From Candidatus Niyogibacteria bacterium (GTDB lineage Bacteria > Patescibacteriota > Minisyncoccia > HO2-45-28): a stretch of 64,000 bases of DNA. Every line of letters starts with the position of its first letter. The first letter of the stretch is position 1. Below the pieces are notes generated by a model that worked only from the letters and a program-made list of their open reading frames with translations, searched no databases and was not told the DNA's origin. This document shows positions 2,639-54,509 of the stretch, one piece after another. The stretch lies in NCBI GenBank assembly GCA_016432485.1, contig CP066691.1, positions 676,944-740,943 of the forward strand. Reading direction: 5' to 3'. The translations under genes were made by a program, and so were the position numbers.

Positions 2639-3682
2639 TCAAGTTAATGTTTTATTTCCCCGACGCAGCGCGTTTTCTACAATGTCCCTGATTAAATCGT
2701 TATAATCAATGCCCGCAACTTTGGCCGCATCGCCGAACTCTTCATTTAATGATATGTCGGGATTGGAATTAACTTCTAAAATATAAGGCCTTCTGTTTTC
2801 GCTGACTCGTATATCAATTCTGGCGTAATCACGACAACCGAGCAATTGAAAGGCCTTGAGCGCTATTTTTTCGAGGCGGTTTTTTAATATGGTTTCAATT
2901 TGTGCCGGAAAACGAGCTCTAGTGCCATATTCTCTTTTTGTGGAATTCCACTTTGCTTCGTATGAGAATACTTTAGGTTCTGTCGGATCCAAGCCGCTGA
3001 AATCAAGTTCTCCAATTCCAAAAATTCTTGGAGGATTGTCTACGACCACCACGGTAAACTCCCGTCCTTCAATGAATTCTTCAACCAGCGCCGGCTGCTT
3101 ATATCGCCCGTGAATGAATTGTATTTTTTCTTCCGCCTCTTGAAATGTTCCGACTACGGATTTTTTAGTGATGCCGACGCTGCCATCTTCTCTGACCGGT
3201 TTGATAATAAAAGGCGGGGTTATTGATTCAAGATTCGGTTTTTCTCCAATGGGGGCGTAAACCGATGGCGGAACCGGAATGCCCGAAGAGCGTAAAATTT
3301 GTTTGCAGCGCATCTTATTTAACGAAAGGCCCAACGGCATAGGTGGGGCGCCGGTGTAAGGCAACTTTAAAAGTTCCAGCCATCCGGCAACATACATTTC
3401 CGTTAGACTCCTGTGCGGGTGATTATGAAGAGACACACATAAATTAAAAATCACATCCGGCTGTATTTTTTCAAGCGCGGCTGTAATTTTGGAATCAGAA
3501 TTTTTTAGATTTAATGTTCGGACATTAAGCCCCGTTTTTTCCAGGGCTTGTTTTACGTCTTTAACATCCTGCACATCTTCTTGATCGTTGAGCTCGGAAT
3601 CAAAATGGTTTTCTATTTTTTGCAGTGGTTCGATGTTCGCGGCGTTGTATAAAATCAAACAAGTTTTTCCTTCAAGTCTCAC
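2639..3682 (-). CDS. ddl: ATP-grasp D-alanine--D-alanine ligase family protein
   Basis: ATP-grasp core FIIKPVREDGSVGITKK...EEFIEGREFTVVVV and Ddl-like C-terminus EVNSNPDISLNEEFGDAAKVAGIDYNDLI. Confidence 0.6.
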   Translation of the reverse strand: MRLEGKTCLILYNAANIEPLQKIENHFDSELNDQEDVQDVKDVKQALEKTGLNVRTLNLKNSDSKITAALEKIQPDVIFNLCVSLHNHPHRSLTEMYVAGWLELLKLPYTGAPPMPLGLSLNKMRCKQILRSSGIPVPPSVYAPIGEKPNLESITPPFIIKPVREDGSVGITKKSVVGTFQEAEEKIQFIHGRYKQPALVEEFIEGREFTVVVVDNPPRIFGIGELDFSGLDPTEPKVFSYEAKWNSTKREYGTRARFPAQIETILKNRLEKIALKAFQLLGCRDYARIDIRVSENRRPYILEVNSNPDISLNEEFGDAAKVAGIDYNDLIRDIVENALRRGNKTLT

Positions 3683-3739: not shown

Positions 3740-4186
3740 TTATTCGTGTTTCAATTCTCTTTCAATCTTTCTTTTTGATTCGCGTTCTTTTATTTTTGCT
3801 CGTTTATCGTATTTTTTCTTTCCTCGGGCTATTCCAATTTCCATTTTCAGCACTTGTCCTTTGGCATAGATTTGTATCGGTATGACGGCGAGCCCTTTTT
3901 GTTCTGATTTTCCGGCCAGATAGTTTATTTCACTCTTTTTTAAAAGAAGTTTTCGGGTTCGCTGCGGTTCGTATTCTTTTGGCGTGTTTGCCGCCTGATA
4001 CGGTGGTATTTCCATTCCTATTATATAGGCCTCGCCCCCGCGGATTATAACGCGCGCGCCCAAAAGCGAGCCCTGTTTATTCCGCAAGGCCTTAACTTCA
4101 AATCCGCGCAATTCCAACCCCGCCTCCAGTTTTTCCAGAATCTCATAATCAAAATATGCTTTTTTGTTTTGCAATAGGCCCGTCAT
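3740..4186 (-). CDS. smpB: SsrA-binding protein SmpB
   Basis: KKAYFDYEILEKLEAGLELRGFEVKALR...LLLKKSEINYL typical SmpB; next to tmRNA. Confidence 0.85.
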   Translation of the reverse strand: MTGLLQNKKAYFDYEILEKLEAGLELRGFEVKALRNKQGSLLGARVIIRGGEAYIIGMEIPPYQAANTPKEYEPQRTRKLLLKKSEINYLAGKSEQKGLAVIPIQIYAKGQVLKMEIGIARGKKKYDKRAKIKERESKRKIERELKHE

Positions 4187-4232
4187 AAAAGAATTATCGC
4201 ATTTTTATCTATTTTACGATAGATTATAGGTA

Positions 4233-5804
4233 ATGCTTCGCGGGAGAATAAAAAAAGAAATTGAAAAACTTGCGCCGAAGGGGGCGGAATTTTCCATTTT
4301 TCGGCCTGAGCGTGAGGCGTTCGGCGACTATTCGTCAAATGTGGCGATGATTGCGGCTAAGGCGGAGAAAAAGAATCCGCGCGAACTTGCCGCGGATTTT
4401 AAAAAGGAACTGGAGAAATCAGGTCTTTTTAAAAAAATTGAAATCGCGGGCTCCGGATTTTTGAATTTCTGGATTACGGACGGAAAGGTTGCGGAAAGTT
4501 TTGGGCAGTTATCAAAAATTAAAGGATTGCCTAAACTCAATTTAGGCAAAAATAATAAAATTCAAATTGAATATGTCTCGGCTAATCCAACGGGCCCTCT
4601 TACGCTGGCTAATGGCCGGGGTGGTTTTTTAGGAGATGTTTTGGGTAATGTTCTGGGACTCGCCGGTTTTAAACTTGAGCGGGAATATTATGTTAATGAC
4701 ACCGGAAATCAAATAATAATTTTGGGTAAATCAATACTTGCGTCAGCCGGACTGATTCCCCGCGAGGAAATATTTTATAAAGGGGACTATGTTAAAGACT
4801 GGGCAATAAAAAATAAAACCAAAGTTAAAAAGTTTAAAGATAATTCCTTAAAACTGGGTCAAGAAGCGGCAAAGGATTTTTTGAAGTCAATTAAAAATTC
4901 TTTGGAAAAAAAAGCAAAAATAAAATTTGACCGTTGGACTTCCGAAGACAAACACATCCGCAAGAGAAATTTTGTGGAAAAAGCGCGGGCGCTTTTTGAC
5001 AAAAAAAACCTTATCTATAAAAAAGACGGCGCCGTGTGGCTGAAAACAACCGATTTTGACGACGATAAGGATAGGGTCCTTATAACTTCCGACGGCTATC
5101 CGACATATTTTTTGGCAGACTCCGGACACTATCTGGAAACTTTGTCACGAGGGTTCAAGAAAAAAATAAATATTTTGGGTCCTGACCACTACGGATATGT
5201 TGCGCGTATTCAGGCGGTTGCCGAAATTGTGGGAATGGAGGAATCCGAAATTATTGTTACCCAAACCGTGCGACTGATGAAGGGCGGAGAAGAATTTAAG
5301 ATGTCCAAACGCAAAGGGACATTTGTGGAATTTGAAGAACTGATTGATGAAATTGGGTTGGATGCTTCTCGTTGGTTTTTTTTGGAACGCTCGGCCGATA
5401 CCCACATGGACATTGATTTGGAATTTGCCAAAAAACAATCGGCGGAAAACCCCGTTTATTATGTCCAGTACGCGCACGCGCGCGCCGCTAGCATTTTAAG
5501 AAAAGCTCGCGCCGCGAGCACTCGGCCTCCAGCTTCCGTCTTCCAGCCTCAAGAACTGAGTTTTATAAAAAAACTTCTTGAGGTTGCCGATGTTTTGGAA
5601 GACACGGCGAAAGATTATCAAGTTCAGCGCCTGACCGCTTACGCCCATGAACTTGCGCAGGCGTTTTCGGCTTACTACCGAGATGTGAAGGTTTTAGGCT
5701 CGGGCGAAGATGAATCGCGCCGGCTTTTCATAGTAAAGTCCGCCAAAAATATCCTCGGTTCGCTCTTGAAGCTTCTCGGCATCTCGGCTCCGGAAAGGAT
5801 GTAA
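4233..5804 (+). CDS. argS: arginyl-tRNA synthetase
   Basis: IEYVSANPTGPLTLANGRGG (HIGH-region equivalent), C-terminal DALR region PVYYVQYAHARAASILRKA. Confidence 0.9.
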   Translation: MLRGRIKKEIEKLAPKGAEFSIFRPEREAFGDYSSNVAMIAAKAEKKNPRELAADFKKELEKSGLFKKIEIAGSGFLNFWITDGKVAESFGQLSKIKGLPKLNLGKNNKIQIEYVSANPTGPLTLANGRGGFLGDVLGNVLGLAGFKLEREYYVNDTGNQIIILGKSILASAGLIPREEIFYKGDYVKDWAIKNKTKVKKFKDNSLKLGQEAAKDFLKSIKNSLEKKAKIKFDRWTSEDKHIRKRNFVEKARALFDKKNLIYKKDGAVWLKTTDFDDDKDRVLITSDGYPTYFLADSGHYLETLSRGFKKKINILGPDHYGYVARIQAVAEIVGMEESEIIVTQTVRLMKGGEEFKMSKRKGTFVEFEELIDEIGLDASRWFFLERSADTHMDIDLEFAKKQSAENPVYYVQYAHARAASILRKARAASTRPPASVFQPQELSFIKKLLEVADVLEDTAKDYQVQRLTAYAHELAQAFSAYYRDVKVLGSGEDESRRLFIVKSAKNILGSLLKLLGISAPERM

Positions 5805-5931
5805 TACGATTTACTTTGTTTTTTGCAAAACTATCAATAAAATTTTACATACTCTTTGGGAGGGAAGCGTCCCACAAAATCATTAAAATTACATACATCA
5901 TTTCCGTACGATCGTACAAAAATGATGTATA

Positions 5932-5965: not shown

Positions 5966-6158
5966 TCATGCATTATCAATTTTGCATGGCCAATAAAGGT
6001 CTTAATAACCCGACTTTCGTCCGGGATATTTCCCGCGTTTCGAGGGAGGACCATTTGGCCAAAAGCGATTTTGTTTAATGCGAATTTAATTTAAAAATCA
6101 ACAATTAAATTTCACAAAGACGCCCCGGCTAAATGGAGTCGGGGCGTCTTGTTTTGTT
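5966..6158 (+). ncRNA. candidate small RNA or regulatory leader (~190 nt) bounded by own promoter and intrinsic terminator
   Basis: No credible ORF; internal stems CATGCA..TGCATG, GGCCAA..TTGGCC; ends in GACGCCCCG-loop-CGGGGCGTC + TTGTTTTGTT. Confidence 0.4.
6119..6158 (+). terminator. rho-independent terminator directly upstream of GNAT gene RBS
   Basis: GACGCCCCGGCTAAATGGAGTCGGGGCGTC then TTGTTTTGTT. Confidence 0.65.
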
Positions 6159-6187
6159 CTCTTATAACCATGGAGGAGGAAGCCAAA

Positions 6188-6907
6188 ATGGAAAATAACG
6201 CCGTATCTCTTCGCGGAAAAAAAGTTGCGCTATGTGTTCCGGATAGAATTAAACATCTTGAAAATGCCATCAAATGGATGAACGATCCGGAGGTAACCCA
6301 ATTCGTCACCACTTATTTGCCGGTAACCAGAGATTTTGAAGAGGCGTGGTTTGATAATTTGGGAAAAGAGCGCGAAAAAAACGTCGTTTTCGCGATTGAA
6401 ACCAAGGACGGCAAACACATCGGCTTTACCGGACTGCATAATATAAATTGGCACGACCGAACAGCTGTCGTCGGAGCCATAATAGGCGATAAGGAATATT
6501 GGGGCAAAGGACACGGAACAGATTCAATGATGATTTTACTTTCTTACGCTTTTCTTACTCTGGATTTAAGAAAGGTGCGCGCTTCGATTCTGGCTTTTAA
6601 TCAAAGAAGTTTGAAACACGCGATCAAATGTGGCTATCGCAAGGAAGGCGTTTCAGAAAAACAATACTATAAAAACGGAAAGTATGTTGATGAAATTTTG
6701 ATGGCCGTTTTCAAGAATAAATGGATTTTGTTTCAGAATAGGGAGTTTCGTGAAAAAGGGGAATTGACCTTTCCGCAAGATATTTGTCCGAAATGCGCTG
6801 GAAAAATGAAAAAGCTTGCGAGGCCGGTCAGTCGTTCGGAATATCGGAATTGTTGGCGCTGCGAAGATTGCGGTTTTGAGACCGAACTGACAGAGATGCA
6901 GAAATAA
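6188..6907 (+). CDS. GNAT-family N-acetyltransferase (RimJ/RimL-like) with C-terminal CxxC...CxxC zinc ribbon
   Basis: RBS GGAGGAGG before ATG 6188 (track start 6149 probably too early); acetyltransferase core FAIETKDGKHIGFTGL...YWGKGHGT; tail CPKCAGK...CWRCEDCG. Confidence 0.65.
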   Translation: MENNAVSLRGKKVALCVPDRIKHLENAIKWMNDPEVTQFVTTYLPVTRDFEEAWFDNLGKEREKNVVFAIETKDGKHIGFTGLHNINWHDRTAVVGAIIGDKEYWGKGHGTDSMMILLSYAFLTLDLRKVRASILAFNQRSLKHAIKCGYRKEGVSEKQYYKNGKYVDEILMAVFKNKWILFQNREFREKGELTFPQDICPKCAGKMKKLARPVSRSEYRNCWRCEDCGFETELTEMQK

Positions 6908-6963: not shown

Positions 6964-9900
6964 ATGACCGACAAGGATTCGGAACATAAAAAATCATTTT
7001 CCGAAAGTGAGAAAGAAATTTTGGAATACTGGCGGAAAAATAAAATTTTTGAAGAAACCCTTGATAAAACCGAAAAGGGCAGGCCATTCGTGTTTTACGA
7101 GGGACCCCCTTACGCCAATGGCCGGCCGGGTATTCATCACGCGCTTGCCCGCGCCTTCAAAGACGCGATTTTGCGTTTTAAGACCATGCGGGGATTTTAT
7201 GTCCGCAGGAAAGCCGGATGGGATACTCACGGATTGCCGACTGAAATGGAAGTCGAGAAAAAACTCGGTTTGGCTTCCAAAAAAGATATAGAAGAAAAAG
7301 TCGGATTGGAAAAATTCGTTGAGGAAGCCAAAAAAAGCGTGTTCGGCTACAAAGAAGAATGGGAAAGACTGACCGACCGAATGGCTTACTGGCTTGATTT
7401 AAAAAATCCGTACGTGACTATGACCAATGGCTATATTGAGTCGCTCTGGTCGGTTTTTTCCAAGATCGCGGAAAACGGATATTTGTATAAGGACTACAAG
7501 GTTTTGCCGTGGTGTCCGCGATGCGGAACCTCGCTTTCGTCGCATGAACTCGCGCAGGGTTATAAAAAGGTAAAAGACGAATCAGTGTATGTTAAATTTC
7601 CCCTCAAACAACCTAAAAGCTATTTATTGGTTTGGACGACGACTCCCTGGACTTTGCCGGGCAACATTGCTTTGGCGGTCAATCCGAAAATCGGCTACGC
7701 GACGGTTGAAAAAAACGGCGAGCGGCTGATTTTGGCTAAAAGCCGGCTTGAAGTTCTTGAAGAAGATTATAAAGAAATAAACGAACAAAAAGGCAAAGAT
7801 CTGATCGGTCTGGAATATGAGCCGCTTTATCCAATATCTAACATTAAACATTCAACATCCGATTATAAGATAGTAGAGTCGGATTTCGTAACTGCCGAAG
7901 ACGGCACCGGCATTTTGCATGTAGCTCCGGCATTCGGCAGAGAGGACCAGGAAATAGGCAAAAAAGAAAAATTGCCAACTCCGATCACGGTGGACGAAGA
8001 GGGGAAATTGAAAGCGCCCGGGTACGCTTGGGACGGCAGATATTTCAAAGACGCCAATCCGCTTATTATTGAAGATTTAAAAAACCGGCAGCTTCTTTTT
8101 AAGACCGAACTTTACGAGCACGACTATCCGTTTTGCTGGCGTTGTCAGTCGCCTCTTATTTATTTCGCGAAGAATTCGTGGTTTTTAAAAACAACGGCGG
8201 TTAAAAATCAAATGATCGCCGAAAATAAAAAAATCGGCTGGCATCCGGAGTTTATTCGCGACGGGCGATTCGGCGAGTGGCTTTCCGAAAATGTTGATTG
8301 GGCGATTTCGCGCGAGCGTTACTGGGGGACTCCCTTGCCGATATGGCAATGCAACGCGTCCGGATGCGGGCATCAGGAAATAATCGGATCGCTTGAAGAA
8401 CTGGATAAGTTCGGGACAAAAAGAACTACGCGAGTTTTTATTATGCGTCACGGCGAGGCGGATCATAATGTTAACGGCTATGTGGGGCCGGTTATAAACG
8501 GCTCCGGCCTTACCGCAAAAGGCAGAAAACAGGTTGAAAAAGAAGTCAAAAAATTGGTCAAAGAAAAAATAGACATTATAATTTCTTCCCCGTTAACTCG
8601 CGCAAAACAAACCGCAGAAATTGTGTCTAAAACATTGGGAGCAAAAATAGAGGTAAACGAAAATATTTATGATTATAACTGGGGCAAACTTCAAGGAAAA
8701 ACGGTTGCGGAAGGGAACAAATTATTTCCGCTTGAAAGGAGATTTAAAGAATCTCCGCCGGGGGGAGAGAGCATACCGGATGTTCGAGCGAGAATGATGA
8801 TGGAGTTAAGGAAAGTTGTCAAAAAGCACGGCGGCAAAAATATTTTAATTATCAGCCACGGTGATCCGATATGGATTTTGAACGCGGCGCTTGAAGGGGC
8901 TGAAGAAAAAGATTATCCGCGATTATGGTATCCGAAAACAGGCGAAGCAAAAGAACTGAAGCTTCATAATTGGCCGTATAACCGAGCCGGAGAGCTGGAT
9001 TTGCACCGGCCTTATATTGATTTGATTGATTTGGTTTGTGCCAAATGCGGAGGCGAAATGAAGCGCGTGAAAGAAGTCGCTGATGTGTGGTTTGATTCGG
9101 GCGCCGTGCCGTTTGCCCAGGACAACTTTTTATTCGGCGCGAAAGCGAAAAGGCCCAGTCAATACCCCGCCGACTATATTGCCGAGGGAGTTGATCAAAC
9201 CAGGGGCTGGTTTTATACGCTGCTTGCCGTTTCGTCTCTATTGAAATTGCCGGCGCCTTATAAAAACGTTCTGGTCTTGGGATTGGTTCTTGATGAAAAA
9301 GGCGAAAAAATGTCCAAGTCGCGAGGTAACGCGGCTGAACCGCTGACGCTTTTTGAAAAATACGGGGCGGATGCCGTCAGATGGTATTTTTACACCGTTA
9401 ATCAGCCGTGGGACGAAAAACTTTTTAAAGAATCGGACATCGCGGAGGCCTCGCGAAGATTCCTGAATATTTTTTGGAACTCGTTTGTGTATTGGAGGAC
9501 TTATAAAGACAAGGGGAGTGTCCTGAAAAAAAAGCCGAGGCTTCTTATAAATAAATGGCTGGACATCAGATTAAACCAGGTTGGATACGACGCGACTGAA
9601 GCGCTTGAAAAATTTGACATTGTTCGCGCCGCGCGGATGATTGAAAACTTCGTGGCTGAAGATTTGTCGCGCTGGTATATCAGGCGGATAAGAGACGCCA
9701 TCAGATTCGGCTCAAAGCCCGAGAAAAAAGAGATAAGCGATATTTTTGGCCTTGCTTTGCGCGAGGTTTCAAAATTAGCGGCTCCTTTTATTCCCTTTTT
9801 GACAGACAGGATGTTTTTAGAAGTTATGAAAAACGGCAGTATTCATTTGGAAAAATGGACTAAATTCAAAAAACCGTCAGTATCCGAAAAAAAACTGGTT

Positions 9901-10371
9901 GAAGAAATGAACGAGGCGAGACGGATTGTTTCCTTGGGGCTTGAAGCGCGGGCGAAAGCCGGCATTAAAGTCCGCCAGCCGCTCGCATTGCTTAAAATCC
10001 GAAATCCGAAATCCGAAATCCGAAACAAAAAAGAATTTCTAAATTTAATAGAAGGGGAGGTGAATATTAAAAAAATAGTTTTTGATCCCAAAATCAAAGA
10101 CGAAGTTGAGTTGGACATAAACATAACTCCCGAACTGAAAGAAGAGGGCCAGCTTCGCGAACTTATACGTCATATTCAGGAGAAAAGAAAAGAAGCCGGT
10201 TTTAAGCCGTCAGATAAAATAACTTTTGCCGCATTAACCGACAGCAAAGGCGCCGCCTTTGTAAAGAAGTTTGAGGCAATCCTTAAAAAAGAAGCGGGGA
10301 TTAAAATAATAATTTTTGGAGAAGCGAAGCAAGAGCGGGGGCCCCTCATTTCTTTAAAATTTAATATATAA
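6964..10371 (+). CDS. ileS: isoleucyl-tRNA synthetase with an inserted histidine-phosphatase (PGAM-like) domain
   Basis: HIGH motif PPYANGRPGIHHA, KMSKS motif KMSKSRGN, editing/Zn regions; insert 8416-8970 carries RHGE...ISHGD. Confidence 0.9.
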   Translation: MTDKDSEHKKSFSESEKEILEYWRKNKIFEETLDKTEKGRPFVFYEGPPYANGRPGIHHALARAFKDAILRFKTMRGFYVRRKAGWDTHGLPTEMEVEKKLGLASKKDIEEKVGLEKFVEEAKKSVFGYKEEWERLTDRMAYWLDLKNPYVTMTNGYIESLWSVFSKIAENGYLYKDYKVLPWCPRCGTSLSSHELAQGYKKVKDESVYVKFPLKQPKSYLLVWTTTPWTLPGNIALAVNPKIGYATVEKNGERLILAKSRLEVLEEDYKEINEQKGKDLIGLEYEPLYPISNIKHSTSDYKIVESDFVTAEDGTGILHVAPAFGREDQEIGKKEKLPTPITVDEEGKLKAPGYAWDGRYFKDANPLIIEDLKNRQLLFKTELYEHDYPFCWRCQSPLIYFAKNSWFLKTTAVKNQMIAENKKIGWHPEFIRDGRFGEWLSENVDWAISRERYWGTPLPIWQCNASGCGHQEIIGSLEELDKFGTKRTTRVFIMRHGEADHNVNGYVGPVINGSGLTAKGRKQVEKEVKKLVKEKIDIIISSPLTRAKQTAEIVSKTLGAKIEVNENIYDYNWGKLQGKTVAEGNKLFPLERRFKESPPGGESIPDVRARMMMELRKVVKKHGGKNILIISHGDPIWILNAALEGAEEKDYPRLWYPKTGEAKELKLHNWPYNRAGELDLHRPYIDLIDLVCAKCGGEMKRVKEVADVWFDSGAVPFAQDNFLFGAKAKRPSQYPADYIAEGVDQTRGWFYTLLAVSSLLKLPAPYKNVLVLGLVLDEKGEKMSKSRGNAAEPLTLFEKYGADAVRWYFYTVNQPWDEKLFKESDIAEASRRFLNIFWNSFVYWRTYKDKGSVLKKKPRLLINKWLDIRLNQVGYDATEALEKFDIVRAARMIENFVAEDLSRWYIRRIRDAIRFGSKPEKKEISDIFGLALREVSKLAAPFIPFLTDRMFLEVMKNGSIHLEKWTKFKKPSVSEKKLVEEMNEARRIVSLGLEARAKAGIKVRQPLALLKIRNPKSEIRNKKEFLNLIEGEVNIKKIVFDPKIKDEVELDINITPELKEEGQLRELIRHIQEKRKEAGFKPSDKITFAALTDSKGAAFVKKFEAILKKEAGIKIIIFGEAKQERGPLISLKFNI

Positions 10372-10372
10372 A

Positions 10373-10933
10373 ATGTACAACCTTCATCATACCGAGGGCG
10401 TAATTTTGTCGGAAACGGATTTCGGCGAAGCCGACCGCATATATAATATCTACACTAAAGATTTTGGGAAAATTTCGGTTTTGGCCAAAGGGATAAGGTT
10501 GGAGAAGTCAAAATTAAGAACGCACTTAACGCCGCGATCTTTAATCCGGCTTTCTTTCGTAGAGGGTAAAGAATTTATGCGCCTGATAGACGCCGAAGAA
10601 ATTTATAATTTACCCGTGAACGAAGAAATATTCGCGTCGTTTACGCGGGCCGCGGCTTTTTTTGCGCGCATGATAAAAGGGCAGGAAAAAGATGAAGCGG
10701 TTTGGGAACTTATGCGCGGCATTTTATCCGACATCGAATGTTTGACAGTAGAATGGTTTGAGCCGCTTTTTGAAGCGAGGCTTCTGCATCGTTTGGGCTA
10801 TGTTTCTTTGCCTGATAAAAATCTCGGAAAAATTATTTCGGAAAATAATTGGTTTCAGCCGGCCTTACCTAAAGAAGAAATTTCGGCTCTCAAAAATATT
10901 TCCTATAAAGCCGCAATGGCTTCGCAGCTTTGA
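10373..10933 (+). CDS. recO: DNA repair protein RecO (short form)
   Basis: N-terminal OB-fold signature TEGVILSETDFGEADRIYNIYTKDFGKISVLAKGIR typical of RecO. Confidence 0.55.
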   Translation: MYNLHHTEGVILSETDFGEADRIYNIYTKDFGKISVLAKGIRLEKSKLRTHLTPRSLIRLSFVEGKEFMRLIDAEEIYNLPVNEEIFASFTRAAAFFARMIKGQEKDEAVWELMRGILSDIECLTVEWFEPLFEARLLHRLGYVSLPDKNLGKIISENNWFQPALPKEEISALKNISYKAAMASQL

Positions 10934-10967: not shown

Positions 10968-12731
10968 TTATTCAATTAATTTTCGCATGGGGAGCGACTG
11001 ATCATCGGGTTCAAGCCGCACATTGATTATGGCAAGCGTTTTACTTTCGGCGGCTTGATGCAGCGCTTCGGCAAATCCATTCGGAGTTAAAACCAGAAAA
11101 CCGCGACCGTAATCAATGGCTTTTGCAAGCCGATGAAAATGAATTGGTGCCAGCGTCAGGCTTTCGGCATTCTGATTTTTATGGCGAAGCATTCCCCAGC
11201 CGTTATTATTAAGAACAATAATAATCGGGCAGAGGCCGTATTTTTTAAAAGAGCCAAGCTCGCCCTCCCACATTGAGAAAGCGCCGTCGCCGACAAGAAC
11301 AACCGGCCTTTTGCCGGCAAACTCAACGCCGAACGCGCCGACGCTGATGCCCATTGTTCCGTAGTTTGAAGACGTGAAGTATCCGGCCGGGCTTAATACT
11401 TGAAGAGCGATCATCATTGCGTCGCCGGTATCAGCTATAAGGGGCATATCCGTGTTTTTACTGAAAAACGCGTTCAGGATCGGCGCGATGTCGGCCGTTT
11501 TTATCGGCATGGGAACAGCGTCGCTCGCGCGCACTAAAGTTTTCTGATAATTTTTAGTTTCTTTTTCCGTATAATCGGCAAACGATTCAACTTTTTCATC
11601 ATCTCTCGGCAAAACATTCTCCGTCAGAAGGTTGATAAAATGAACCGCGTCTTTTGCGGATATGGTCGCATAGTGGTTGCCGATAACAATGGCGCGCTCC
11701 GGAAGGTCAATTTTAAGCGAGGGCCTTGGCAATTTTGGTTCCCTAAGGCCGTGGTTGACTTCATAATTATAAACGCCGATTTCCATTAAACAATCTGATG
11801 TTTCCGCCATCACGCCGGCAATTTCAGGATAGCTTGCGGTACCAACATATGCGCCTGTAAATAGCGGGTGTGTCAGAGGGAAATCACCGCGGCCATTAAA
11901 GCTTGAAATAACTGGAATGCGAGCCTTTTGGCTAAATCGCGCGATTGATTCTGTCAAACCGAATCGTTGGGCGAGATGCCCGATCAGAATTACGGGCCTT
12001 GCGGCATCGTCAAGCAAAGACATTGTTCTTTGGAGAAGGTTTTGAAACTTGCTTTCAGGCAGCCAAGTCAAAGTTTTTGCGGGAGGAGAGGGGAGGTATC
12101 TCGGCGTTTCAATAAGTCGATTCCACATATCCTGCGGAACTCCGATATAAACCGGCTGCTTGTCGCGCATGGCCATATCAATCATGCTGATAATTTGGCG
12201 CCAAGCGCGGCGATGGTCCACAAGGCTGATTGTGCGTTCGGGACCGAGAAGGTTTACAAAATTATCTCGCTGGTCGTCAAAATATCCCATTCGCGTCTGA
12301 TGATGAAAAAGACAGTGAGTTTCTGAGCGCTTATTTAAAGCGATTTCAGAACCAATGACAACGAGCGGACAAAAATTTGTTTTAGCATCCGTTACAGCCG
12401 AAAGCATATTAAGACAGCCGACATTATATGAGCCGTAACATGCTCCCAAGCCTTTTATGCGTCCGTAGATGTTCGCGGCAAAAGCACTTCCCGCCTCTGT
12501 TCTCGTCGTAATATTTGCAATTTCAGACTGTTCGCCTAAAGCGTAAACCAGGTCCAGAATGTAATCTCCGGGAACGCCGAAAATATGTTTAACGCCGCGG
12601 CAAGACAGCGCGGCCAATAGAAATCGAGAAAGCGTTTTTTGAGTCATGGCGCGAGCGCCTCCTTTATCAATTTTCAAGCCGACTTTCTGCGTTATATTAA
12701 CTCTTATTTGTTTTTTTGGCAAATAAGTCAT
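10968..12731 (-). CDS. thiamine-pyrophosphate-dependent enzyme (acetolactate synthase / pyruvate decarboxylase family)
   Basis: N-terminal TPP-pyrimidine domain HIFGVPGDYILDL, C-terminal TPP motif VVLVGDGAFSM...NNNGWG; probable true start at internal MTQKTLS (about 12647). Confidence 0.7.
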   Translation of the reverse strand: MTYLPKKQIRVNITQKVGLKIDKGGARAMTQKTLSRFLLAALSCRGVKHIFGVPGDYILDLVYALGEQSEIANITTRTEAGSAFAANIYGRIKGLGACYGSYNVGCLNMLSAVTDAKTNFCPLVVIGSEIALNKRSETHCLFHHQTRMGYFDDQRDNFVNLLGPERTISLVDHRRAWRQIISMIDMAMRDKQPVYIGVPQDMWNRLIETPRYLPSPPAKTLTWLPESKFQNLLQRTMSLLDDAARPVILIGHLAQRFGLTESIARFSQKARIPVISSFNGRGDFPLTHPLFTGAYVGTASYPEIAGVMAETSDCLMEIGVYNYEVNHGLREPKLPRPSLKIDLPERAIVIGNHYATISAKDAVHFINLLTENVLPRDDEKVESFADYTEKETKNYQKTLVRASDAVPMPIKTADIAPILNAFFSKNTDMPLIADTGDAMMIALQVLSPAGYFTSSNYGTMGISVGAFGVEFAGKRPVVLVGDGAFSMWEGELGSFKKYGLCPIIIVLNNNGWGMLRHKNQNAESLTLAPIHFHRLAKAIDYGRGFLVLTPNGFAEALHQAAESKTLAIINVRLEPDDQSLPMRKLIE

Positions 12732-23182: not shown

Positions 23183-26164
23183 ATGCCTGATTACGATTTC
23201 AATAAAATAGAAAAGAAGTGGTCGGAAAAGTGGCTTAAGGATAAAACTTACGAGCCCCTCGACTTCGCTCGGGGTAAACCGGATTTAGACAAGGCCAAAA
23301 AGCCCTTCTACAACCTGATGATGTTTCCGTATCCTTCGGCCGAGGGGCTTCATGTGGGCAATATGTACGCGTTTACCGGCGCGGATATTTATGGCCGGAA
23401 AAAAAGAATGGAGGGCAAGGATGTTTTTGAGCCAATCGGCCTTGACGGTTTCGGGATTCATTCGGAAAATTACGCCTTAAAAATCGGCAAACACCCCAAA
23501 AAACTGGCGCAAGAGACAGAAAAAAGATTTTACGAGCAGTTGAAAATGATTGGCAACGGATTTTCTTGGGATGAACGGCTTGAGACATACGACCCCGAAT
23601 ATTACAAATGGACCCAGTGGATTTTTGTTCAGATGTTTAAGCGGGGGCTCGCCTATCGCAAAAAAGCCAGCGTTAATTGGTGCGCGCAATGTTTAACGGT
23701 TTTAGCCGATGAACAGGTGCTTGCGGGCGAGTGCGAAAGGTGCGGGACAAAAGTAATTAAAAAAGAACTTGAGCAATGGTTTTTTAAAATTACGGATTAC
23801 GCCGAGCGGCTTTTGAATGATATTGAAAAAATAGATTGGTCCAAACGAATTAAGATTGCCCAGAAAAATTGGATTGGGAAGTCAGAAGGAGCGTTAATAA
23901 AATTTCCGCTAAAAGCTAAGAGCTTACAGCTAAAAGTTGAAACAGAGGTTTTTACGACGAGGCCGGATACTTTATTTGGAGCAACATACCTTGTGTTAAG
24001 CCCGGAACATCCGTGGCTTACACAAGAAATCCTAAATTCTAAATCCGAAATCCTAAACAAATCCGAAATCCGAAATTATATAGAAAAATCCAAGGCAAAA
24101 ACCGAAGAAGAAAGAATTGCCGAAAGGGGCGACTCGCCTTCGCATAAAGCTTCGGCGGAGCAAGGAAAAACGGGAGTAGAATTGAAAGGAATTAAGGCAA
24201 TAAATCCGGCAACGAAAGAAGAAATACCAATATGGATTGCAGACTATGTTTTGGCGGGCTATGGCACTGGCGCGATTATGGCAGTTCCGGCGCATGACCA
24301 GCGCGATTTTGAGTTTGCACAGAAATTCGGGCTAGAAGTTAGGGAAGTTATTCGGCCGGTCTACGGGGAGCCACACGAAGGCGCGGAGTTTAGAAGGACT
24401 GTTACGGCTATAGTCCAAAGAAAAAGCGATGGTAAGTTTTTAGTCGTGAAGTGGAATAAATTTAATTGGGTGTCTTTGCCTATAGGCGGAATTGACGAAG
24501 GGGAGACGGCAGAAGAAACAGCGGTTCGCGAAGTATTTGAAGAAACTGGGCACAGAGTAAGACCGGTAAAAAAATTAGGCGGTGAGGTTACAATGCATTT
24601 TTTTGCTGAGAACAAAAATGTATGGAGACATAGATTGGATCAGCCTGTACTGCTTGAGTTGGTTGACGAAAACCAGACGGAGCGAAGTATTGAAGAAAAG
24701 GAGAAGTTGGAGCCAGTATGGATGAGCGGAGAAGAACTTATAAGATCAATAACCCATGAATACAATGTTATTGGCGTAAAGCGTTTTCTGGGTTTTGAGC
24801 TGGCGTATCAAGGACGGGGGGAATTGGTTAATTCCGGCGTTTTTGATGGAATGGATTCAGAGAAAGCAAAGCGGGAGATTACTAAATTTGTTGGCGGGGA
24901 AATAAAAAGTCAATATCATCTTCGCGATTGGCTTATATCCCGCCAGCGTTACTGGGGGCCTCCAATCCCGATGATTTTTTGCCCCGCCTGCGCCAACTCG
25001 GCCTTCGTAGCTACTTCGGCGAAGGAGGCGGCTTCGGCGGGCAAGAAAAATGCCGGTTGGCAACCCGTGCCGGAAAAAGACCTGCCTGTTTTACTGCCGG
25101 ACATAAAGAATTTTCGTCCGACAGGAACGGATAAATCTCCGCTGGCGACAGTTGAAGAATTCGTAAAAGCGAAATGCCCGAAATGCGGCGGGGAAGCACG
25201 AAGGGAAACGGATGTTTCAGACACTTTTTTGGATTCGGCCTGGTATTTTTTCAGATATATTGACCACGAAAATAAGCAAGAAGCTTTTAGCCGGAAGCTC
25301 GCGAAGCGCTGGCTTCCCGTGGATATGTATATCGGAGGCGCCGAGCACGCCGTTTTGCATCTTTTATACACAAGATTTTTAACCAAAGTTTTTTATGATT
25401 GGGGTTTGATTGATTTTGACGAGCCATTCAAAAAGTTCCGCGCGCATGGACTTTTAATAAAAGACGGCGCGAAAATGTCCAAGTCAAAAGGCAATGTGGT
25501 GAATCCCGACGATTATATAAATAAATTCGGCGCGGATACTCTTAGAATGTATTTGATGTTTTTGGGGCCGTTTGACGAGGGCGGAGATTTTAGAGATGAA
25601 AGCATCGCGGGCGCTGTCAGGTTTTTGAATAGGGTCTGGAAGTTGAAAGAAAAAATCACCCCGTCATCCGACGGGGTGCCCGGTCGAATGACCGGGCAAA
25701 ATCCCAAATTAGAAATCATACTGAATCAATCAATTAAAAAAATCGGAGATGATATTGAGAAACTTCATTACAATACCGCGATTTCCCAATTGATGATTTT
25801 ATTAAGCTCGTTTGAAAACGGATGCGACGAAAAAAGTTTTAAAATATTTTTGAAACTTCTCGCGCCCTTCGCTCCGTTTCTTGTAGAAGAGCTCTGGCAT
25901 AAATTGGGGGAGTCAGAAAGTATTCATACATCAAAATGGCCCGAATACGACGAATCAAAAATTAAAGAGGAGATGAAAACGATAATTGTGCAGATCAACG
26001 GAAAAGTCCGCGAAAAATTTGAAATATCATCTAAGGACTCGGATGAAGAAATTAAAATACAAACGTTGAATCTCCCGAAGATAAAAGAATTCCTTGGCGG
26101 AAAAAATCCTCAAAAGATAATCGTGGCCAGAAATCGGTTGGTAAATATAGTGCTTGCAAAATAG
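23183..26164 (+). CDS. leuS: leucyl-tRNA synthetase with an inserted Nudix hydrolase domain
   Basis: HIGH-like FPYPSAEGLHVGN, KMSKSKGN, CP1 editing domain; insert 24340-24780 with canonical Nudix box GGIDEGETAEETAVREVFEETGH. Confidence 0.9.
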   Translation: MPDYDFNKIEKKWSEKWLKDKTYEPLDFARGKPDLDKAKKPFYNLMMFPYPSAEGLHVGNMYAFTGADIYGRKKRMEGKDVFEPIGLDGFGIHSENYALKIGKHPKKLAQETEKRFYEQLKMIGNGFSWDERLETYDPEYYKWTQWIFVQMFKRGLAYRKKASVNWCAQCLTVLADEQVLAGECERCGTKVIKKELEQWFFKITDYAERLLNDIEKIDWSKRIKIAQKNWIGKSEGALIKFPLKAKSLQLKVETEVFTTRPDTLFGATYLVLSPEHPWLTQEILNSKSEILNKSEIRNYIEKSKAKTEEERIAERGDSPSHKASAEQGKTGVELKGIKAINPATKEEIPIWIADYVLAGYGTGAIMAVPAHDQRDFEFAQKFGLEVREVIRPVYGEPHEGAEFRRTVTAIVQRKSDGKFLVVKWNKFNWVSLPIGGIDEGETAEETAVREVFEETGHRVRPVKKLGGEVTMHFFAENKNVWRHRLDQPVLLELVDENQTERSIEEKEKLEPVWMSGEELIRSITHEYNVIGVKRFLGFELAYQGRGELVNSGVFDGMDSEKAKREITKFVGGEIKSQYHLRDWLISRQRYWGPPIPMIFCPACANSAFVATSAKEAASAGKKNAGWQPVPEKDLPVLLPDIKNFRPTGTDKSPLATVEEFVKAKCPKCGGEARRETDVSDTFLDSAWYFFRYIDHENKQEAFSRKLAKRWLPVDMYIGGAEHAVLHLLYTRFLTKVFYDWGLIDFDEPFKKFRAHGLLIKDGAKMSKSKGNVVNPDDYINKFGADTLRMYLMFLGPFDEGGDFRDESIAGAVRFLNRVWKLKEKITPSSDGVPGRMTGQNPKLEIILNQSIKKIGDDIEKLHYNTAISQLMILLSSFENGCDEKSFKIFLKLLAPFAPFLVEELWHKLGESESIHTSKWPEYDESKIKEEMKTIIVQINGKVREKFEISSKDSDEEIKIQTLNLPKIKEFLGGKNPQKIIVARNRLVNIVLAK

Positions 26165-51905: not shown

Positions 51906-51923
51906 TATAAGGAAGAATTTTTA

Positions 51924-51960
51924 GGCCTTGTCATGACCACTTGACAAGGCCGTTTTTTTT
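51924..51960 (+). terminator. rho-independent terminator overlapping next promoter
   Basis: GGCCTTGTCA-TGACCAC-TTGACAAGGCC + TTTTTTTT. Confidence 0.7.
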
Positions 51961-51968
51961 GATATAAT
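51941..51968 (+). promoter_or_regulatory. consensus sigma70 promoter (TTGACA-16-TATAAT) embedded in terminator, ~165-nt leader
   Basis: TTGACA is the 3' arm of the terminator stem; TATAAT at 51963-51968. Confidence 0.6.
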
Positions 51969-52139
51969 AGAGAGAGTAAAATGCCACTGTTCAATGTGAA
52001 TGGGTTGGCACAAGGTCTTTGTCAACTTTTCAGATAAGGAGAAAAGACACATAGGACACCTGTTTTTGGCGTTTTTTTCGTAACACAGGCGAAAGGGGCA
52101 TTGAGCCCAAAGCAACATATCTCCAAGGAGGAGAGGAAC

Positions 52140-53588
52140 GTGGCAAAGCCCAAGAGTGAGCACAGAACAGCGGAAGAGGGAAGCCTCGGCACCCTCGGCG
52201 ATTTGGCGGTGGGTGGCCTCGTCGTCAGAGGCAAGGCCGCCAAGAAACCGTCGGATGACGACGGCTTCGGCATCCCCGATCTCACCGGCATCAAGCCGGC
52301 GGAGGAGTTGGAGGACGAGCGCTTGCGCGCCGAAAGGAGGGAGGAGAAGACAGCCTCCTTCCTCGAGGCCGTGCCGTCGGCAGTCAAGATGCTTCTCGAG
52401 CGGATTCGCTCCAAGGCGGGAGCCGAGGAGGCCCGGCAGATTCTGCAGGAGAGGATCCTGGACGTTCAGGACCCCGAACTGCGGGGTCGCGCTCGCTGGC
52501 TCTACGCCCGTGAGTTCGTGGCCCGCGCCGTGGAAAACGGCGGGTCGCCCAACATGTTCGAGGTTCTCAATCACCTCGGCATGAAGGATGATGGCCTCAA
52601 ACTCGTCGGGGAGCCCGAGGGGAACAAGGTCGTCACCATCCGGGTGCAGGTCGGGAAGAAGTTCTTTGTCCCGGCCCACATTCCGACCGGCATGGAGCCG
52701 GTGGTGAAGGAAGCGTTCCAGCTTCTTCACCAGCTTTCCGGCGTCACCAAGGAAAAGCAGTACGATGAGCGAAAGGCTGCTCTCGAGGCGTTCACCAAGG
52801 ACGTCTCGCGCGAGTGGGACGACCTCCTCTCCGGCCAGCCCGGGACCTACGTCTTCTACGTGCCCGACGAAAAGGGCACAAGGAAGACGGACACCGGCGA
52901 ACGCGTGCCATGGACTTACTTCGGAGGCCACCTCAAGGTGGTTTCTGACGGTGGAACCTTCGTGGCCGTGGGGGCTCTCGGCGCCTTTGAGAGGTCGAGA
53001 ATCCTGGCCGAAGCCATCGCCTGGCAGGTGGCCGTTATCGTTCCCTCCGTTCAGAAGGGGTTCGAGAGGGATGCGGAGGGCAGAGGGCCAAGGATCTCGC
53101 CCGAGCGCCTGCCCAAAGATCAGTTCAAAGCGGCCATCCATCTTCACAGCCTGATGAACCGCGCCTTCGTCCTTCACGAGGCCAACATGGCCAAGAAGGC
53201 CGAGGCCGACAAGGCCAAGGCCGAGGCGACGGTGGAGCACGAAGCCTTCCTGCTGGATGGCGCCGACGGCGTGGCTTTCGTCAAGCACCTCCGCTTCAAC
53301 GATGTGCCCCATCCGTGGGCGCTCGTGGAGCGCAAGGCCGGCGAGATCCGGGTCGTGGAAGCCCACCCTGCGGAAGATTTCTTCCCGCCTGAGAGCTTCG
53401 GGTTCATGCCGGAGGGCGAGGATTTCGCGGGTCTGGATAAGACCCTGCGCAACTTCTTGCGCTACGCCAGAACCAAGGCCGAGCGGGCCAAGGAGAAGGG
53501 CAAGGGCTTCGACTCCGGAAACGCCACGGAGGAGGAGATGAAGGCGTACGCCGAAGATTTGGGAGTTCCCACCGACGGACGCTCCTGA
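52140..53588 (+). CDS. hypothetical 482-aa protein, strongly GC-rich (~63%) foreign gene, GTG start
   Basis: AGGAGGAGAGGAAC then GTG; codon usage unlike rest of window; Lys/Ala/Glu-rich C-terminal coiled segment; no recognised family. Confidence 0.55.
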   Translation: MAKPKSEHRTAEEGSLGTLGDLAVGGLVVRGKAAKKPSDDDGFGIPDLTGIKPAEELEDERLRAERREEKTASFLEAVPSAVKMLLERIRSKAGAEEARQILQERILDVQDPELRGRARWLYAREFVARAVENGGSPNMFEVLNHLGMKDDGLKLVGEPEGNKVVTIRVQVGKKFFVPAHIPTGMEPVVKEAFQLLHQLSGVTKEKQYDERKAALEAFTKDVSREWDDLLSGQPGTYVFYVPDEKGTRKTDTGERVPWTYFGGHLKVVSDGGTFVAVGALGAFERSRILAEAIAWQVAVIVPSVQKGFERDAEGRGPRISPERLPKDQFKAAIHLHSLMNRAFVLHEANMAKKAEADKAKAEATVEHEAFLLDGADGVAFVKHLRFNDVPHPWALVERKAGEIRVVEAHPAEDFFPPESFGFMPEGEDFAGLDKTLRNFLRYARTKAERAKEKGKGFDSGNATEEEMKAYAEDLGVPTDGRS

Positions 53589-53633
53589 CGAAGCCGGAGG
53601 ACCGGCGACACAGGACTGACGTCAATAACACCT

Positions 53634-53677
53634 GCCCCCGGAAGGAGGATTTTCTCCTCCTTCCGGGGCGTTTTTTT
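53634..53677 (+). terminator. strong rho-independent terminator
   Basis: CCCCCGGAAGGAGG-ATTTTC-TCCTCCTTCCGGGG + CGTTTTTTT. Confidence 0.8.
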
Positions 53678-53690
53678 GAAAGGAACGTAA

Positions 53691-54509
53691 ATGGAAATTC
53701 ATCCGCAAAACAGGGGAAAGGCTAAAAAGATTTTTGATCTGGTTCTTTCAGAAGCCGGAGAGGGAAATAGGTGGGATAATGAGGAACCGGGAGTAATTGA
53801 TTTTATTTCCAAAAAGAGCGGTCTGAAATTGGGCCGCGAAGTGATAGGCAAACTTCTTTCAGAAGTTTGTGATGCGGGTTATCTGGAAAAGATTCTTGGC
53901 GGAAGGACGGGCCGAAAAATTGTTAGCCTGCGGATCCTCCGCCGCGAATGGCAAGAGAAAAGCGCTCAAAGGCCGCCACAGAAAAATAAAGAGACGGCCG
54001 CGATAACACCGGCGCCGAAGACGGCGGCAGATCGGAAAAAACCCGAAAAGCCAAGGCTGGTTTTGCTTGTTGATTTCGTCAATATAGAAACTACTTTGAT
54101 GAGCGCGTCTAAAGCCGTTGACGCAATAGTCGGCTTGGAAGGACCTCTGGTGAACATTGGCACGATTGAAGCCAAATTCAGTTTTATACCGTCCCATCGA
54201 TTAGATGGCGCGCTGGTCCTCTCACTCATTTATCGTCATCTATTGATTGTCTGTCCCAGAAATCTGCATAACGGAGTCGATAAGACTAAGGATAAAGACC
54301 TGGTTGACGCGAGAATGAGCAATTTGGTTAATATCATCGCTCTTTTTAACGATGACATATCGCACATTGTCTTTGTTTCAGGAGATGGAGATTTTCTCGA
54401 CGCAGCCTGTTATGCCAAAGACCACGGCAAGAAAGTGGTCGTGGCCGCTCCGATGGGACATCTTTCAAGGGCGCTTGAAAAAGTGGCCGACGAAATTATC
54501 TTTTTCTAG
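53691..54509 (+). CDS. NYN/LabA-like (PIN-fold) domain protein with N-terminal winged-helix-like region
   Basis: C-terminal LVLLVDFVNIE...VFVSGDGDFLDAACYAKDHGKKVVVAA matches NYN/LabA signature (SGDGDF). Confidence 0.6.
   Translation: MEIHPQNRGKAKKIFDLVLSEAGEGNRWDNEEPGVIDFISKKSGLKLGREVIGKLLSEVCDAGYLEKILGGRTGRKIVSLRILRREWQEKSAQRPPQKNKETAAITPAPKTAADRKKPEKPRLVLLVDFVNIETTLMSASKAVDAIVGLEGPLVNIGTIEAKFSFIPSHRLDGALVLSLIYRHLLIVCPRNLHNGVDKTKDKDLVDARMSNLVNIIALFNDDISHIVFVSGDGDFLDAACYAKDHGKKVVVAAPMGHLSRALEKVADEIIFF

Follow-up and report, generated by a model that had tools for sequence, protein, structure and literature searches.

The stretch of DNA considered here, 64,000 nucleotides of contig CP066691.1 (positions 676,944 to 740,943; hereafter the window) from a Candidatus Niyogibacteria bacterium, carries an ileS gene at 6964..10371 on the forward strand. 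Its product, IleS, is an isoleucyl-tRNA synthetase (IleRS) of 1135 amino acids of the type-2 (MupA/MupB-like) group, and it is the only IleRS found in the window. Embedded in this protein is a module of 185 residues (aa 485-669; 8416..8970, forward strand) that sequence profiles, an AlphaFold2 model and Foldseek comparisons assign to the histidine phosphatase (HP) superfamily. Few enzymes have been studied as thoroughly as bacterial aminoacyl-tRNA synthetases, whose extra catalytic domains are normally editing deacylases. The interest of this locus lies in a predicted phosphoryl-transfer enzyme that retains all of its catalytic residues inside the catalytic body of IleRS, and that does so across a large part of the Candidate Phyla Radiation (CPR, or Patescibacteria).

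The host protein exceeds the cutoff of the TIGR00392 ileS equivalog model in an NCBIfam profile search (850 bits versus 621), its match falling into two separate stretches, and the next-best models are those for MupB (797 bits) and MupA (749 bits). A search of the Protein Data Bank (PDB) matches it to the solved IleRS structures 8c8w (E = 1e-232) and 1ile (E = 1e-229). With MupA/MupB and Thermus thermophilus-type IleRS as the nearest relatives, and with the HIGH, KMSKS and connective peptide 1 (CP1) editing signatures all present, membership in the type-2 group is evident. The HIGH-type signature of the synthetic site reads PGIHH (aa 55-59; 7126..7140, +), wherein P55, G56, H58 and H59 are each at least 90% conserved among 81 homologues. 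The CP1 editing domain (approximately aa 200-389; 7561..8130, +) aligns with the isolated editing-domain chains 1wk8 and 1ue0 over aa 199-389, and its WTTTPWT segment (224-230), H319 and D328 are invariant in the same 81 sequences. Likewise, a motif search places the KMSKS loop at aa 782-786 (9307..9321, +), with K782, M783 and K785 invariant. Given the conservation of these elements, the synthetase appears to be fully functional. A full-length structural model is confident overall, with a predicted local distance difference test score (pLDDT) of 90.4 and a predicted template-modelling score (pTM) of 0.85, and both junctions with the insert are modelled at high confidence.

The boundaries of the insert are set by native IleS sequence on either side. 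Upstream are the first cysteine pair of the second zinc-knuckle (C463 and C468; 8350..8367, +), which is conserved without exception in the 120 homologues, and the ELDKFG segment. Native sequence resumes with WPYN..GELDLHRPYID (aa 670-686), which precedes C692 and C695, the second pair of cysteines (8971..9048, +), in a region where P671, D679, H681, P683, D686 and both cysteines are invariant or nearly invariant among IleS homologues. Both flanking segments are also found in an insert-less relative (P0254). Because the flanks are native, conserved and contain the cysteine pairs, the insert can be located in the second zinc-knuckle loop of the connective-peptide region, presumably the part called CP3 in ValRS nomenclature. 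When the protein is aligned with 8c8w, residue 484 pairs with residue 478 of the chain and residue 677 with residue 485, and therefore a canonical type-2 IleRS has only 6 residues where the window protein has 192. An initial annotation, made from the sequence of the window alone, had placed about 185 extra residues between the ELDKFG and LHRPYID segments, at a point that is spanned by just a short linker in canonical IleS, and these boundaries hold. The GC content at third codon positions is 0.39 in the insert and 0.49 in the remainder of ileS, a somewhat lower value for the insert that we do not regard as a sign of recent transfer.

The same annotation proposed that the extra residues form a histidine phosphatase domain, and the sequence and structural evidence agrees. 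Pfam model PF00300 (His_Phos_1) matches aa 491-656 (8434-8931, +) with E = 3.8e-36 and 125 bits, compared with a cutoff of 21.7, and the match covers profile positions 1-171 of 194; searching with the 185-residue insert alone gives E = 2.3e-37. Both signatures noted earlier, RHGE within FIMRHGEADHN and the second histidine within ILIISHGDPI, are present and form part of a complete catalytic set. This set comprises the RHG motif (R495, H496 and G497; 8446..8454, +), in which H496 is the predicted phospho-acceptor nucleophile, a second phosphate-pocket arginine (R546, in SPLTRAKQT; 8599..8601, +), the predicted general acid E602 (in GGES; 8767..8769, +) and the second catalytic histidine H632 (in ISHGDP; 8857..8859, +). 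N502 and R610 are also among the residues that define the active site.

Conservation of these residues was assessed in the best 120 IleS homologues, which are 48-100% identical to the window protein. All 120 carry a PF00300 domain. R495, H496, R546 and H632 are conserved in 120 of 120, and G497 and E602 in 119 of 120. More broadly, the R-H-R-E-H pentad is complete in 105 of 107 inserted copies and in 118 of 120 free-standing copies of the domain. Such a pattern indicates that the catalytic residues of the insert are under purifying selection.

Structure prediction agrees with the profile match. We modelled aa 485-676 with AlphaFold2, using 57 free-standing homologues, and obtained a confident phosphatase fold of the alpha/beta, phosphoglycerate mutase-like kind (pLDDT 93.8, pTM 0.90); thus the insert has the profile, active-site residues and fold of branch 1 of the superfamily. 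Foldseek matches the model at a probability of 1.00, with template-modelling scores of 0.80-0.83, to PspA (4ij6), GpgP (4qih and 6s2q) and PhoE (1h2e), and the PDB sequence search agrees, with the PspA entries 4ij5 and 4ij6 as the top matches. The closest solved folds are therefore those of small-molecule phosphatases (PspA, glucosyl-3-phosphoglycerate phosphatase and PhoE). The label 'SixA-like', which had also been attached to the domain, does not stand. The SixA model (TIGR00249) scores 43.1 bits with the whole protein and 49.5 with the insert, versus a cutoff of 74.5, and only its first 78 profile positions are matched. Other models likewise fall below their cutoffs, including those for dPGM (NF038349, dPGM_arch, 82.5 versus 225 bits; TIGR01258, pgm_1, 32.6 versus 81.7), PspA-type phosphoserine phosphatase (NF045917, 76.7 versus 350) and CobC (75 versus 163). 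The top NCBIfam model for the insert, the RNase H/acid phosphatase model PRK07238, gives 103 bits over its HP part only, against a cutoff of 326. Because every characterised subfamily model falls below cutoff, we classify the insert as a superfamily member with no assigned subfamily.

The architecture extends well beyond this genome. A database protein from a Candidatus Niyogibacteria metagenome-assembled genome (P0121) is 100% identical to the window IleS, and the named sources among the best 120 homologues include Niyogi-, Giovannoni-, Taga-, Wildermuth- and Nealsonbacteria. In a second set of 151 sequences, made up of the window protein and the 150 representatives listed for clusters at 50% identity, the HP domain is present in 90, one of which is from Peregrinibacteria. 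All named sources of HP-bearing IleS belong to CPR groups, namely Paceibacteria, Peregrinibacteria and Peribacteria. We also scanned loci using one genome per GTDB species, with counts made among the matches listed. At least 23 loci have the HP inside ileS, and these carry the labels Spechtbacterales, Minisyncoccia, Paceibacteria, Yanofskybacteria, Peregrinibacteria, Peribacteria and 'Saccharibacteria'; one metagenome-assembled genome among them is labelled 'Gammaproteobacteria', a label that we suspect is wrong. No HP gene lies within 4 kb on either side of the 57 insert-less ileS loci among the matches listed, nearly all of which are non-CPR (mostly Clostridia, Bacilli, Chloroflexi and Actinobacteria, with a few archaea). 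Judging from these comparisons, HP-in-IleS is a conserved architecture of CPR bacteria and not an accident of one genome, and it provides a marker trait for CPR lineages.

The best database matches to the insert itself are free-standing CPR proteins of approximately 190 amino acids that are 35-44% identical to it. These proteins begin with ..N-K-Y-F-I-L-RHGE and end with ..KTGE.(K/R)EL, and both termini match the ends of the insert, which means that an entire open reading frame's worth of phosphatase is embedded in IleS. We inspected the genomic contexts of seven of the closest free-standing homologues. In six, the HP gene is located directly upstream of an insert-less ileS gene (product of 954-1015 aa). 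In five of these contexts the spacing lies between an overlap of 4 nt and a gap of 5 nt, and in the other the gap is 361 nt. The seventh (P0097) is a weaker match that resides in another context without linkage to ileS; the linkage is specific to the closest HP subfamily. The adjacency spans three IleS sequence types, as distinguished by HIGH regions of the PHYGH, GIHH and GVHH types.

The gene block shared by these relatives and the window runs smpB, argS, [HP], ileS, recO, a DUF11/CLIPPER gene, a class II synthetase gene, an M16 peptidase gene and an AI-2E transporter gene, and the argS-ileS-recO order is common to the window and to the split-gene relatives. In the window, the upstream anchor argS (4233..5804, +; Pfam Arg_tRNA_synt_N, tRNA-synt_1d and DALR_1) occupies the same order as in loci L001-L010 and L094, and the downstream anchor recO (10373..10933, +; RecO_N) is also found 3' of ileS in L001, L006, L008-L010 and L094. 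No upstream HP gene occurs at the insert-bearing loci examined (the window, L008 and L009), and no second HP gene was found within the window. The slot directly upstream of ileS, where relatives have the free-standing HP gene, is filled in the window by a GNAT gene (6149..6907, +; Acetyltransf_3, RimL/RimJ-like) whose product carries a C-terminal CxxC...CxxC zinc ribbon. We considered whether this gene is part of the HP-ileS system and ruled it out: L008 has an AMP-binding enzyme gene and L009 a PmbA/TldD gene upstream, and in the window a terminator-like hairpin (GGCGCCC..GGGCGC TTTTTT) lies 3' of the GNAT gene, between it and ileS.

Variants of the insertion are informative with regard to how often the fusion arose. 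Among a few CPR IleS proteins with other arrangements, one (P0355) carries its HP directly after the DxWFESG segment, in another (P0295) the domain separates the catalytic body from the anticodon-binding domain, and a third (P0298) has two HPs, one at the canonical site and one before the anticodon-binding domain. The three distinct insertion sites imply at least three tethering events. Tandem HP copies at the canonical site are present in P0322 and in two Peregrinibacteria/Peribacteria loci (L032 and L033), and some CPR proteins with two HPs are 1420-1490 aa long. The copies in P0319 and L035 are truncated or degenerate. Two singleton clusters, both CPR IleS proteins from other metagenomes, carry additional modules. 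One of them, from a Patescibacteria member (P0385, MCX6807234.1), contains in addition to the HP a NUDIX domain that follows the first zinc hairpin (aa 226-343), and the other, P0349, has an HP plus a P-loop, kinase-like AAA_18/AAA_33 insert of approximately 180 aa after DxWFESG.

Phylogenetic reconstruction adds little resolution to this history. A neighbour-joining (NJ) tree of HP domains is comb-like, such that monophyly of the inserted copies cannot be read from it, and inserted, neighbour and 'none' states are interleaved on the corresponding tree of IleS cores. Free-standing HPs are 55-76% identical among themselves, compared with 27-43% between free-standing and inserted copies. A recent hop of an upstream HP gene into ileS is unsupported, given that the free-standing HPs group more tightly with one another than with the inserted copies.

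A parallel arrangement is present elsewhere in the window. The leuS gene (23183..26164, +) encodes a bacterial-type LeuS of 993 aa (leuS_bact, 874 bits) that contains a NUDIX domain at aa 404-519 (24392..24739, +), just after the editing domain (228-396). The initial annotation had noted this Nudix insert and had suggested that the pair of embedded hydrolases reflects a lineage-specific theme. The insert is confirmed by Pfam (E = 1.1e-13) and by an intact Nudix box of the form G-x5-E-x7-REVFEETG, and the theme proves to be stronger than was proposed, because the HP insert is kept across much of the CPR. The LeuS Nudix domain is most closely related to Nudix proteins encoded by free-standing genes, with which it shares 55-61% identity. 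In three of three contexts (L011, L012 and L095), the genes for such proteins are located 33-43 nt downstream of leuS, and they adjoin both bacterial-type and archaeal-type LeuS genes. These contigs look archaeal (DPANN-like), with genes for TFIIB and ribosomal protein S8e. Thus, HP-IleS and Nudix-LeuS are also found as adjoining separate genes in other small-genome organisms, and the neighbour-or-insert pattern recurs with LeuS, another class Ia synthetase, whose hydrolase (Nudix) is unrelated to the HP. Besides the window protein, one LeuS fragment with a Nudix insert was found, and this insert seems much rarer and younger than that of IleS. We also considered a common origin for the Nudix inserts of the two synthetases, and found no significant similarity between the IleS Nudix of P0385 and the LeuS Nudix of the window. 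Because they are unrelated in sequence, we regard the two as independent recruitments.

On the basis of these observations, we judge it likely that the insert is an active phosphomonoesterase that serves as a dedicated partner of IleRS, conserved in CPR bacteria and kept with the synthetase by operon coupling or by fusion. The linkage to IleRS in CPR, through operon position and repeated fusion, is directly observed. The notion of a dedicated partner follows from the fact that insert-less CPR relatives encode an HP whose gene abuts or overlaps the start of ileS. We infer that the insert is catalytically active, and that its substrate would be a phosphorylated small molecule or an RNA end tied to the function of IleRS or tRNA-Ile. 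The domain may act on an alarmone, as had been raised at the outset, or on a nucleotide. In the mechanism we envisage, H496 would attack a phosphomonoester held by R495, R546 and H632, E602 would protonate the leaving group, and the resulting phospho-histidine intermediate would then be hydrolysed. Meanwhile, the synthetase core, with its HIGH, KMSKS and editing sites, would charge tRNA-Ile normally. Fusion would secure a 1:1 stoichiometry and the proximity of phosphatase and IleRS.

Several observations weigh against the proposal of a dedicated, active partner. Between inserted and free-standing HPs, identity is only 27-43%, even where the IleS cores share approximately 60%. Conserved adjacency and fusion can be explained by a need for co-expression alone. 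That the domain is tolerated at various sites argues against a strict requirement for its placement relative to the active sites of IleRS. Finally, with the SixA, dPGM, PspA, CobC and RNase H/acid phosphatase models all below cutoff, the sequence names no substrate. The conserved architecture, the split-gene form, the repeated tethering and the Nudix-LeuRS parallel together suggest an unrecognised biochemical need in isoleucine and leucine charging in organisms with ultra-small genomes.

The foremost alternative is that the HP is a housekeeping enzyme (a PhoE-like enzyme of broad specificity, a phosphoserine phosphatase or a short phosphoglycerate mutase) that is functionally unconnected to IleRS. 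Under this explanation, the gene would ride in the argS-ileS operon for the sake of constitutive expression, would have been captured in a permissive surface loop by illegitimate recombination, and would have been retained, since the cell requires both activities, through constructive neutral evolution in a small and drifting genome. The nearest structures are indeed metabolic small-molecule phosphatases, and the tolerance of several insertion sites suggests that geometry is irrelevant. The inserted HP has also diverged more quickly than the IleS core (0.40 versus 0.59 in mean pairwise identity), although the two co-vary (r = 0.70). However, a passenger of this kind does not readily account for an HP-ileS adjacency that is kept across three IleS sequence types and was not found at the 57 listed insert-less, nearly all non-CPR, ileS loci. 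Nor does it account for fusion at three or more sites together with tandem copies, or for the same neighbour-or-insert pattern shown by the unrelated Nudix enzyme and LeuS. Repeated independent tethering therefore points to more than the usual operon hitch-hiking, and we consider a housekeeping role to be a serious possibility, albeit an improbable one.

A more specific alternative holds that the two hydrolases repair tRNA ends or counter toxins. In this case, HP (with IleRS) and Nudix (with LeuRS) would strip a 3'-phosphate, 2',3'-cyclic phosphate or 3'-pyrophosphate from the CCA end and thereby make the tRNA chargeable. Such groups arise from tRNase cleavage or from toxins of the toxSAS type. 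It is well established that toxins can act by pyrophosphorylating the 3'-CCA end of tRNA, which prevents its aminoacylation (10.1101/2021.04.30.441581; PMC11559606). The two activities that would be required are those of a pyrophosphohydrolase family (Nudix) and a phosphomonoesterase family (HP), and both are found in the IleS of P0385; furthermore, the P-loop AAA_33/AAA_18 domain of P0349 recalls the kinase-phosphatase enzymes of end healing. However, P0385 and P0349 are singleton clusters, and the HP fold is nearest to small-molecule phosphatases rather than to the open-site phosphatases that act on protein or RNA. The scheme is also inferential throughout, down to the orientation it requires, with the phosphatase pocket turned towards the acceptor end of the tRNA, and it leaves the restriction to tRNA-Ile and tRNA-Leu unexplained. 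We therefore regard it as unlikely. Comparably doubtful is its more general form, wherein class Ia synthetases of CPR and DPANN organisms would have recruited small phosphohydrolases (HP for IleRS and Nudix for LeuRS) as a class of accessory module not recognised before, either inserted or adjacent as editing domains are, that heals tRNA 3' ends before charging. If true, there would be synthetases with a built-in end-healing or anti-toxin step that removes a 3'-phosphate, a cyclic phosphate or a toxin-added pyrophosphate.

It is also improbable, to our judgement, that the insert is a non-catalytic module, such as a phospho-ligand sensor or a structural brace, that regulates IleRS without turnover. 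The predicted rigid integration of the domain, with high pLDDT across both junctions and a pTM of 0.85, would suit such a role, as would the few relatives with truncated or degenerate copies (P0319 and L035). Against it stands the retention of the full pentad, including the general-acid glutamate, in 105 of 107 inserts and its invariance or near-invariance in the 120 homologues. In histidine phosphatases this glutamate is required for turnover and not for binding.

The function originally proposed for the domain, hydrolysis of misactivated aminoacyl-adenylates or of diadenosine tetraphosphate (Ap4A) as a proofreading or clean-up activity, fares slightly worse. Its appeal is that the free-standing-or-inserted pattern resembles that of synthetase editing domains, and that the Nudix family includes Ap4A hydrolases. 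However, the histidine phosphatase pocket, formed by two arginines and two histidines, binds a terminal phosphomonoester, which neither aminoacyl-AMP nor Ap4A possesses, and so these substrates are ill-suited to a phosphomonoesterase active site. The CP1 editing residues are moreover all intact, and therefore there is no sign of a missing editing function in need of replacement. For these two reasons we consider the proofreading idea very unlikely. A chimeric assembly, frameshift or miscalled open reading frame can be dismissed almost outright, since the reading frame is continuous, an identical NCBI protein exists (P0121) and the architecture recurs in over 100 independent homologues drawn from separate samples.

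The dedicated-partner reading can be placed alongside systems that are already known. Synthetase editing modules that are either inserted or free-standing include ProRS INS/YbaK/ProXp, AlaXp and archaeal ThrRS-ed. As with the HP, these are small hydrolases that act as a synthetase domain or as a separate gene serving a synthetase. Unlike the HP, they have unrelated folds and catalyse hydrolysis of aminoacyl esters rather than phosphoryl transfer, and IleS keeps its own CP1 editing domain. Phosphatases of the PhoE/PspA/GpgP type share with the insert its fold, its RHG, Arg, Glu and His set and its length of approximately 180-200 aa, whereas the window copy is embedded within another enzyme and falls below all subfamily cutoffs. 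The RNase H/acid phosphatase of PRK07238 (Rv2228c-type) similarly joins an HP to a nucleic-acid enzyme, but it does so by C-terminal fusion rather than internal insertion, and the window protein has no RNase H. NF040702 (ileS_w_GNAT) describes IleS with an extra catalytic domain, and the GNAT gene of the window lies directly upstream of ileS; however, the accessory fold is a different one, and the window IleS is not a member of this family (314.8 bits versus a cutoff of 1999).

The two superfamilies are also joined in mycobacterial MutT1, in which an N-terminal Nudix domain is followed by a SixA-like histidine phosphatase domain, and which acts on nucleotides and on sensor kinases (PMC12407098). 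Its HP domain dephosphorylates sensor histidine kinases (PMC12407098). In the present case the HP belongs to IleS and the Nudix domain to LeuS, and P0385 combines the two, but MutT1 is a plain two-domain fusion without a synthetase, and the insert matches the MutT1 model only at E = 0.0027. An accessory catalytic module in a synthetase is a known kind of arrangement, whereas HP-IleRS itself is, as far as we searched, undescribed. A search of full-text literature, with subscription-only papers lying outside it, found no description of either HP-IleRS or Nudix-LeuRS. The architecture is visible in the precomputed Pfam annotation of public records, and because of the HP insertion the NCBI name is limited to 'class I tRNA ligase family protein'.

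Some additional features were noted in the course of this work. A tmRNA gene (2256-2606, -; Rfam RF00023, 165 bits) is located upstream of the argS-ileS block of the window. In related loci smpB lies near the tmRNA-equivalent position, whereas the window instead has a gene for an ATP-grasp protein resembling D-Ala-D-Ala ligase (2639-3682, -). A thiamine-pyrophosphate enzyme gene (10968-12731, -; TPP_enzyme_N/M/C) is positioned between recO and the DUF11/CLIPPER-like gene of the window, and it breaks a gene order that is otherwise kept in related CPR loci. In one CPR lineage (L004 and L005, at approximately 4072-5841), pairs of HEPN/nucleotidyltransferase and AbiEii/DUF6922 genes, which are toxin-antitoxin-like modules, are found between argS and the HP-ileS pair. 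The archaeal-looking contig L012 carries an RNase HII gene (8662-10737, -) with an intein (Intein_splicing plus LAGLIDADG). Finally, the region of the window from approximately 52000 to 54000 is GC-rich (0.59 compared with a window mean of 0.46) and contains long overlapping open reading frames at 52101-53588 (+) and 51921-53366 (-). The former, of 495 aa, has no Pfam match, and the stretch has no match in Rfam; it may represent foreign or fast-evolving DNA.

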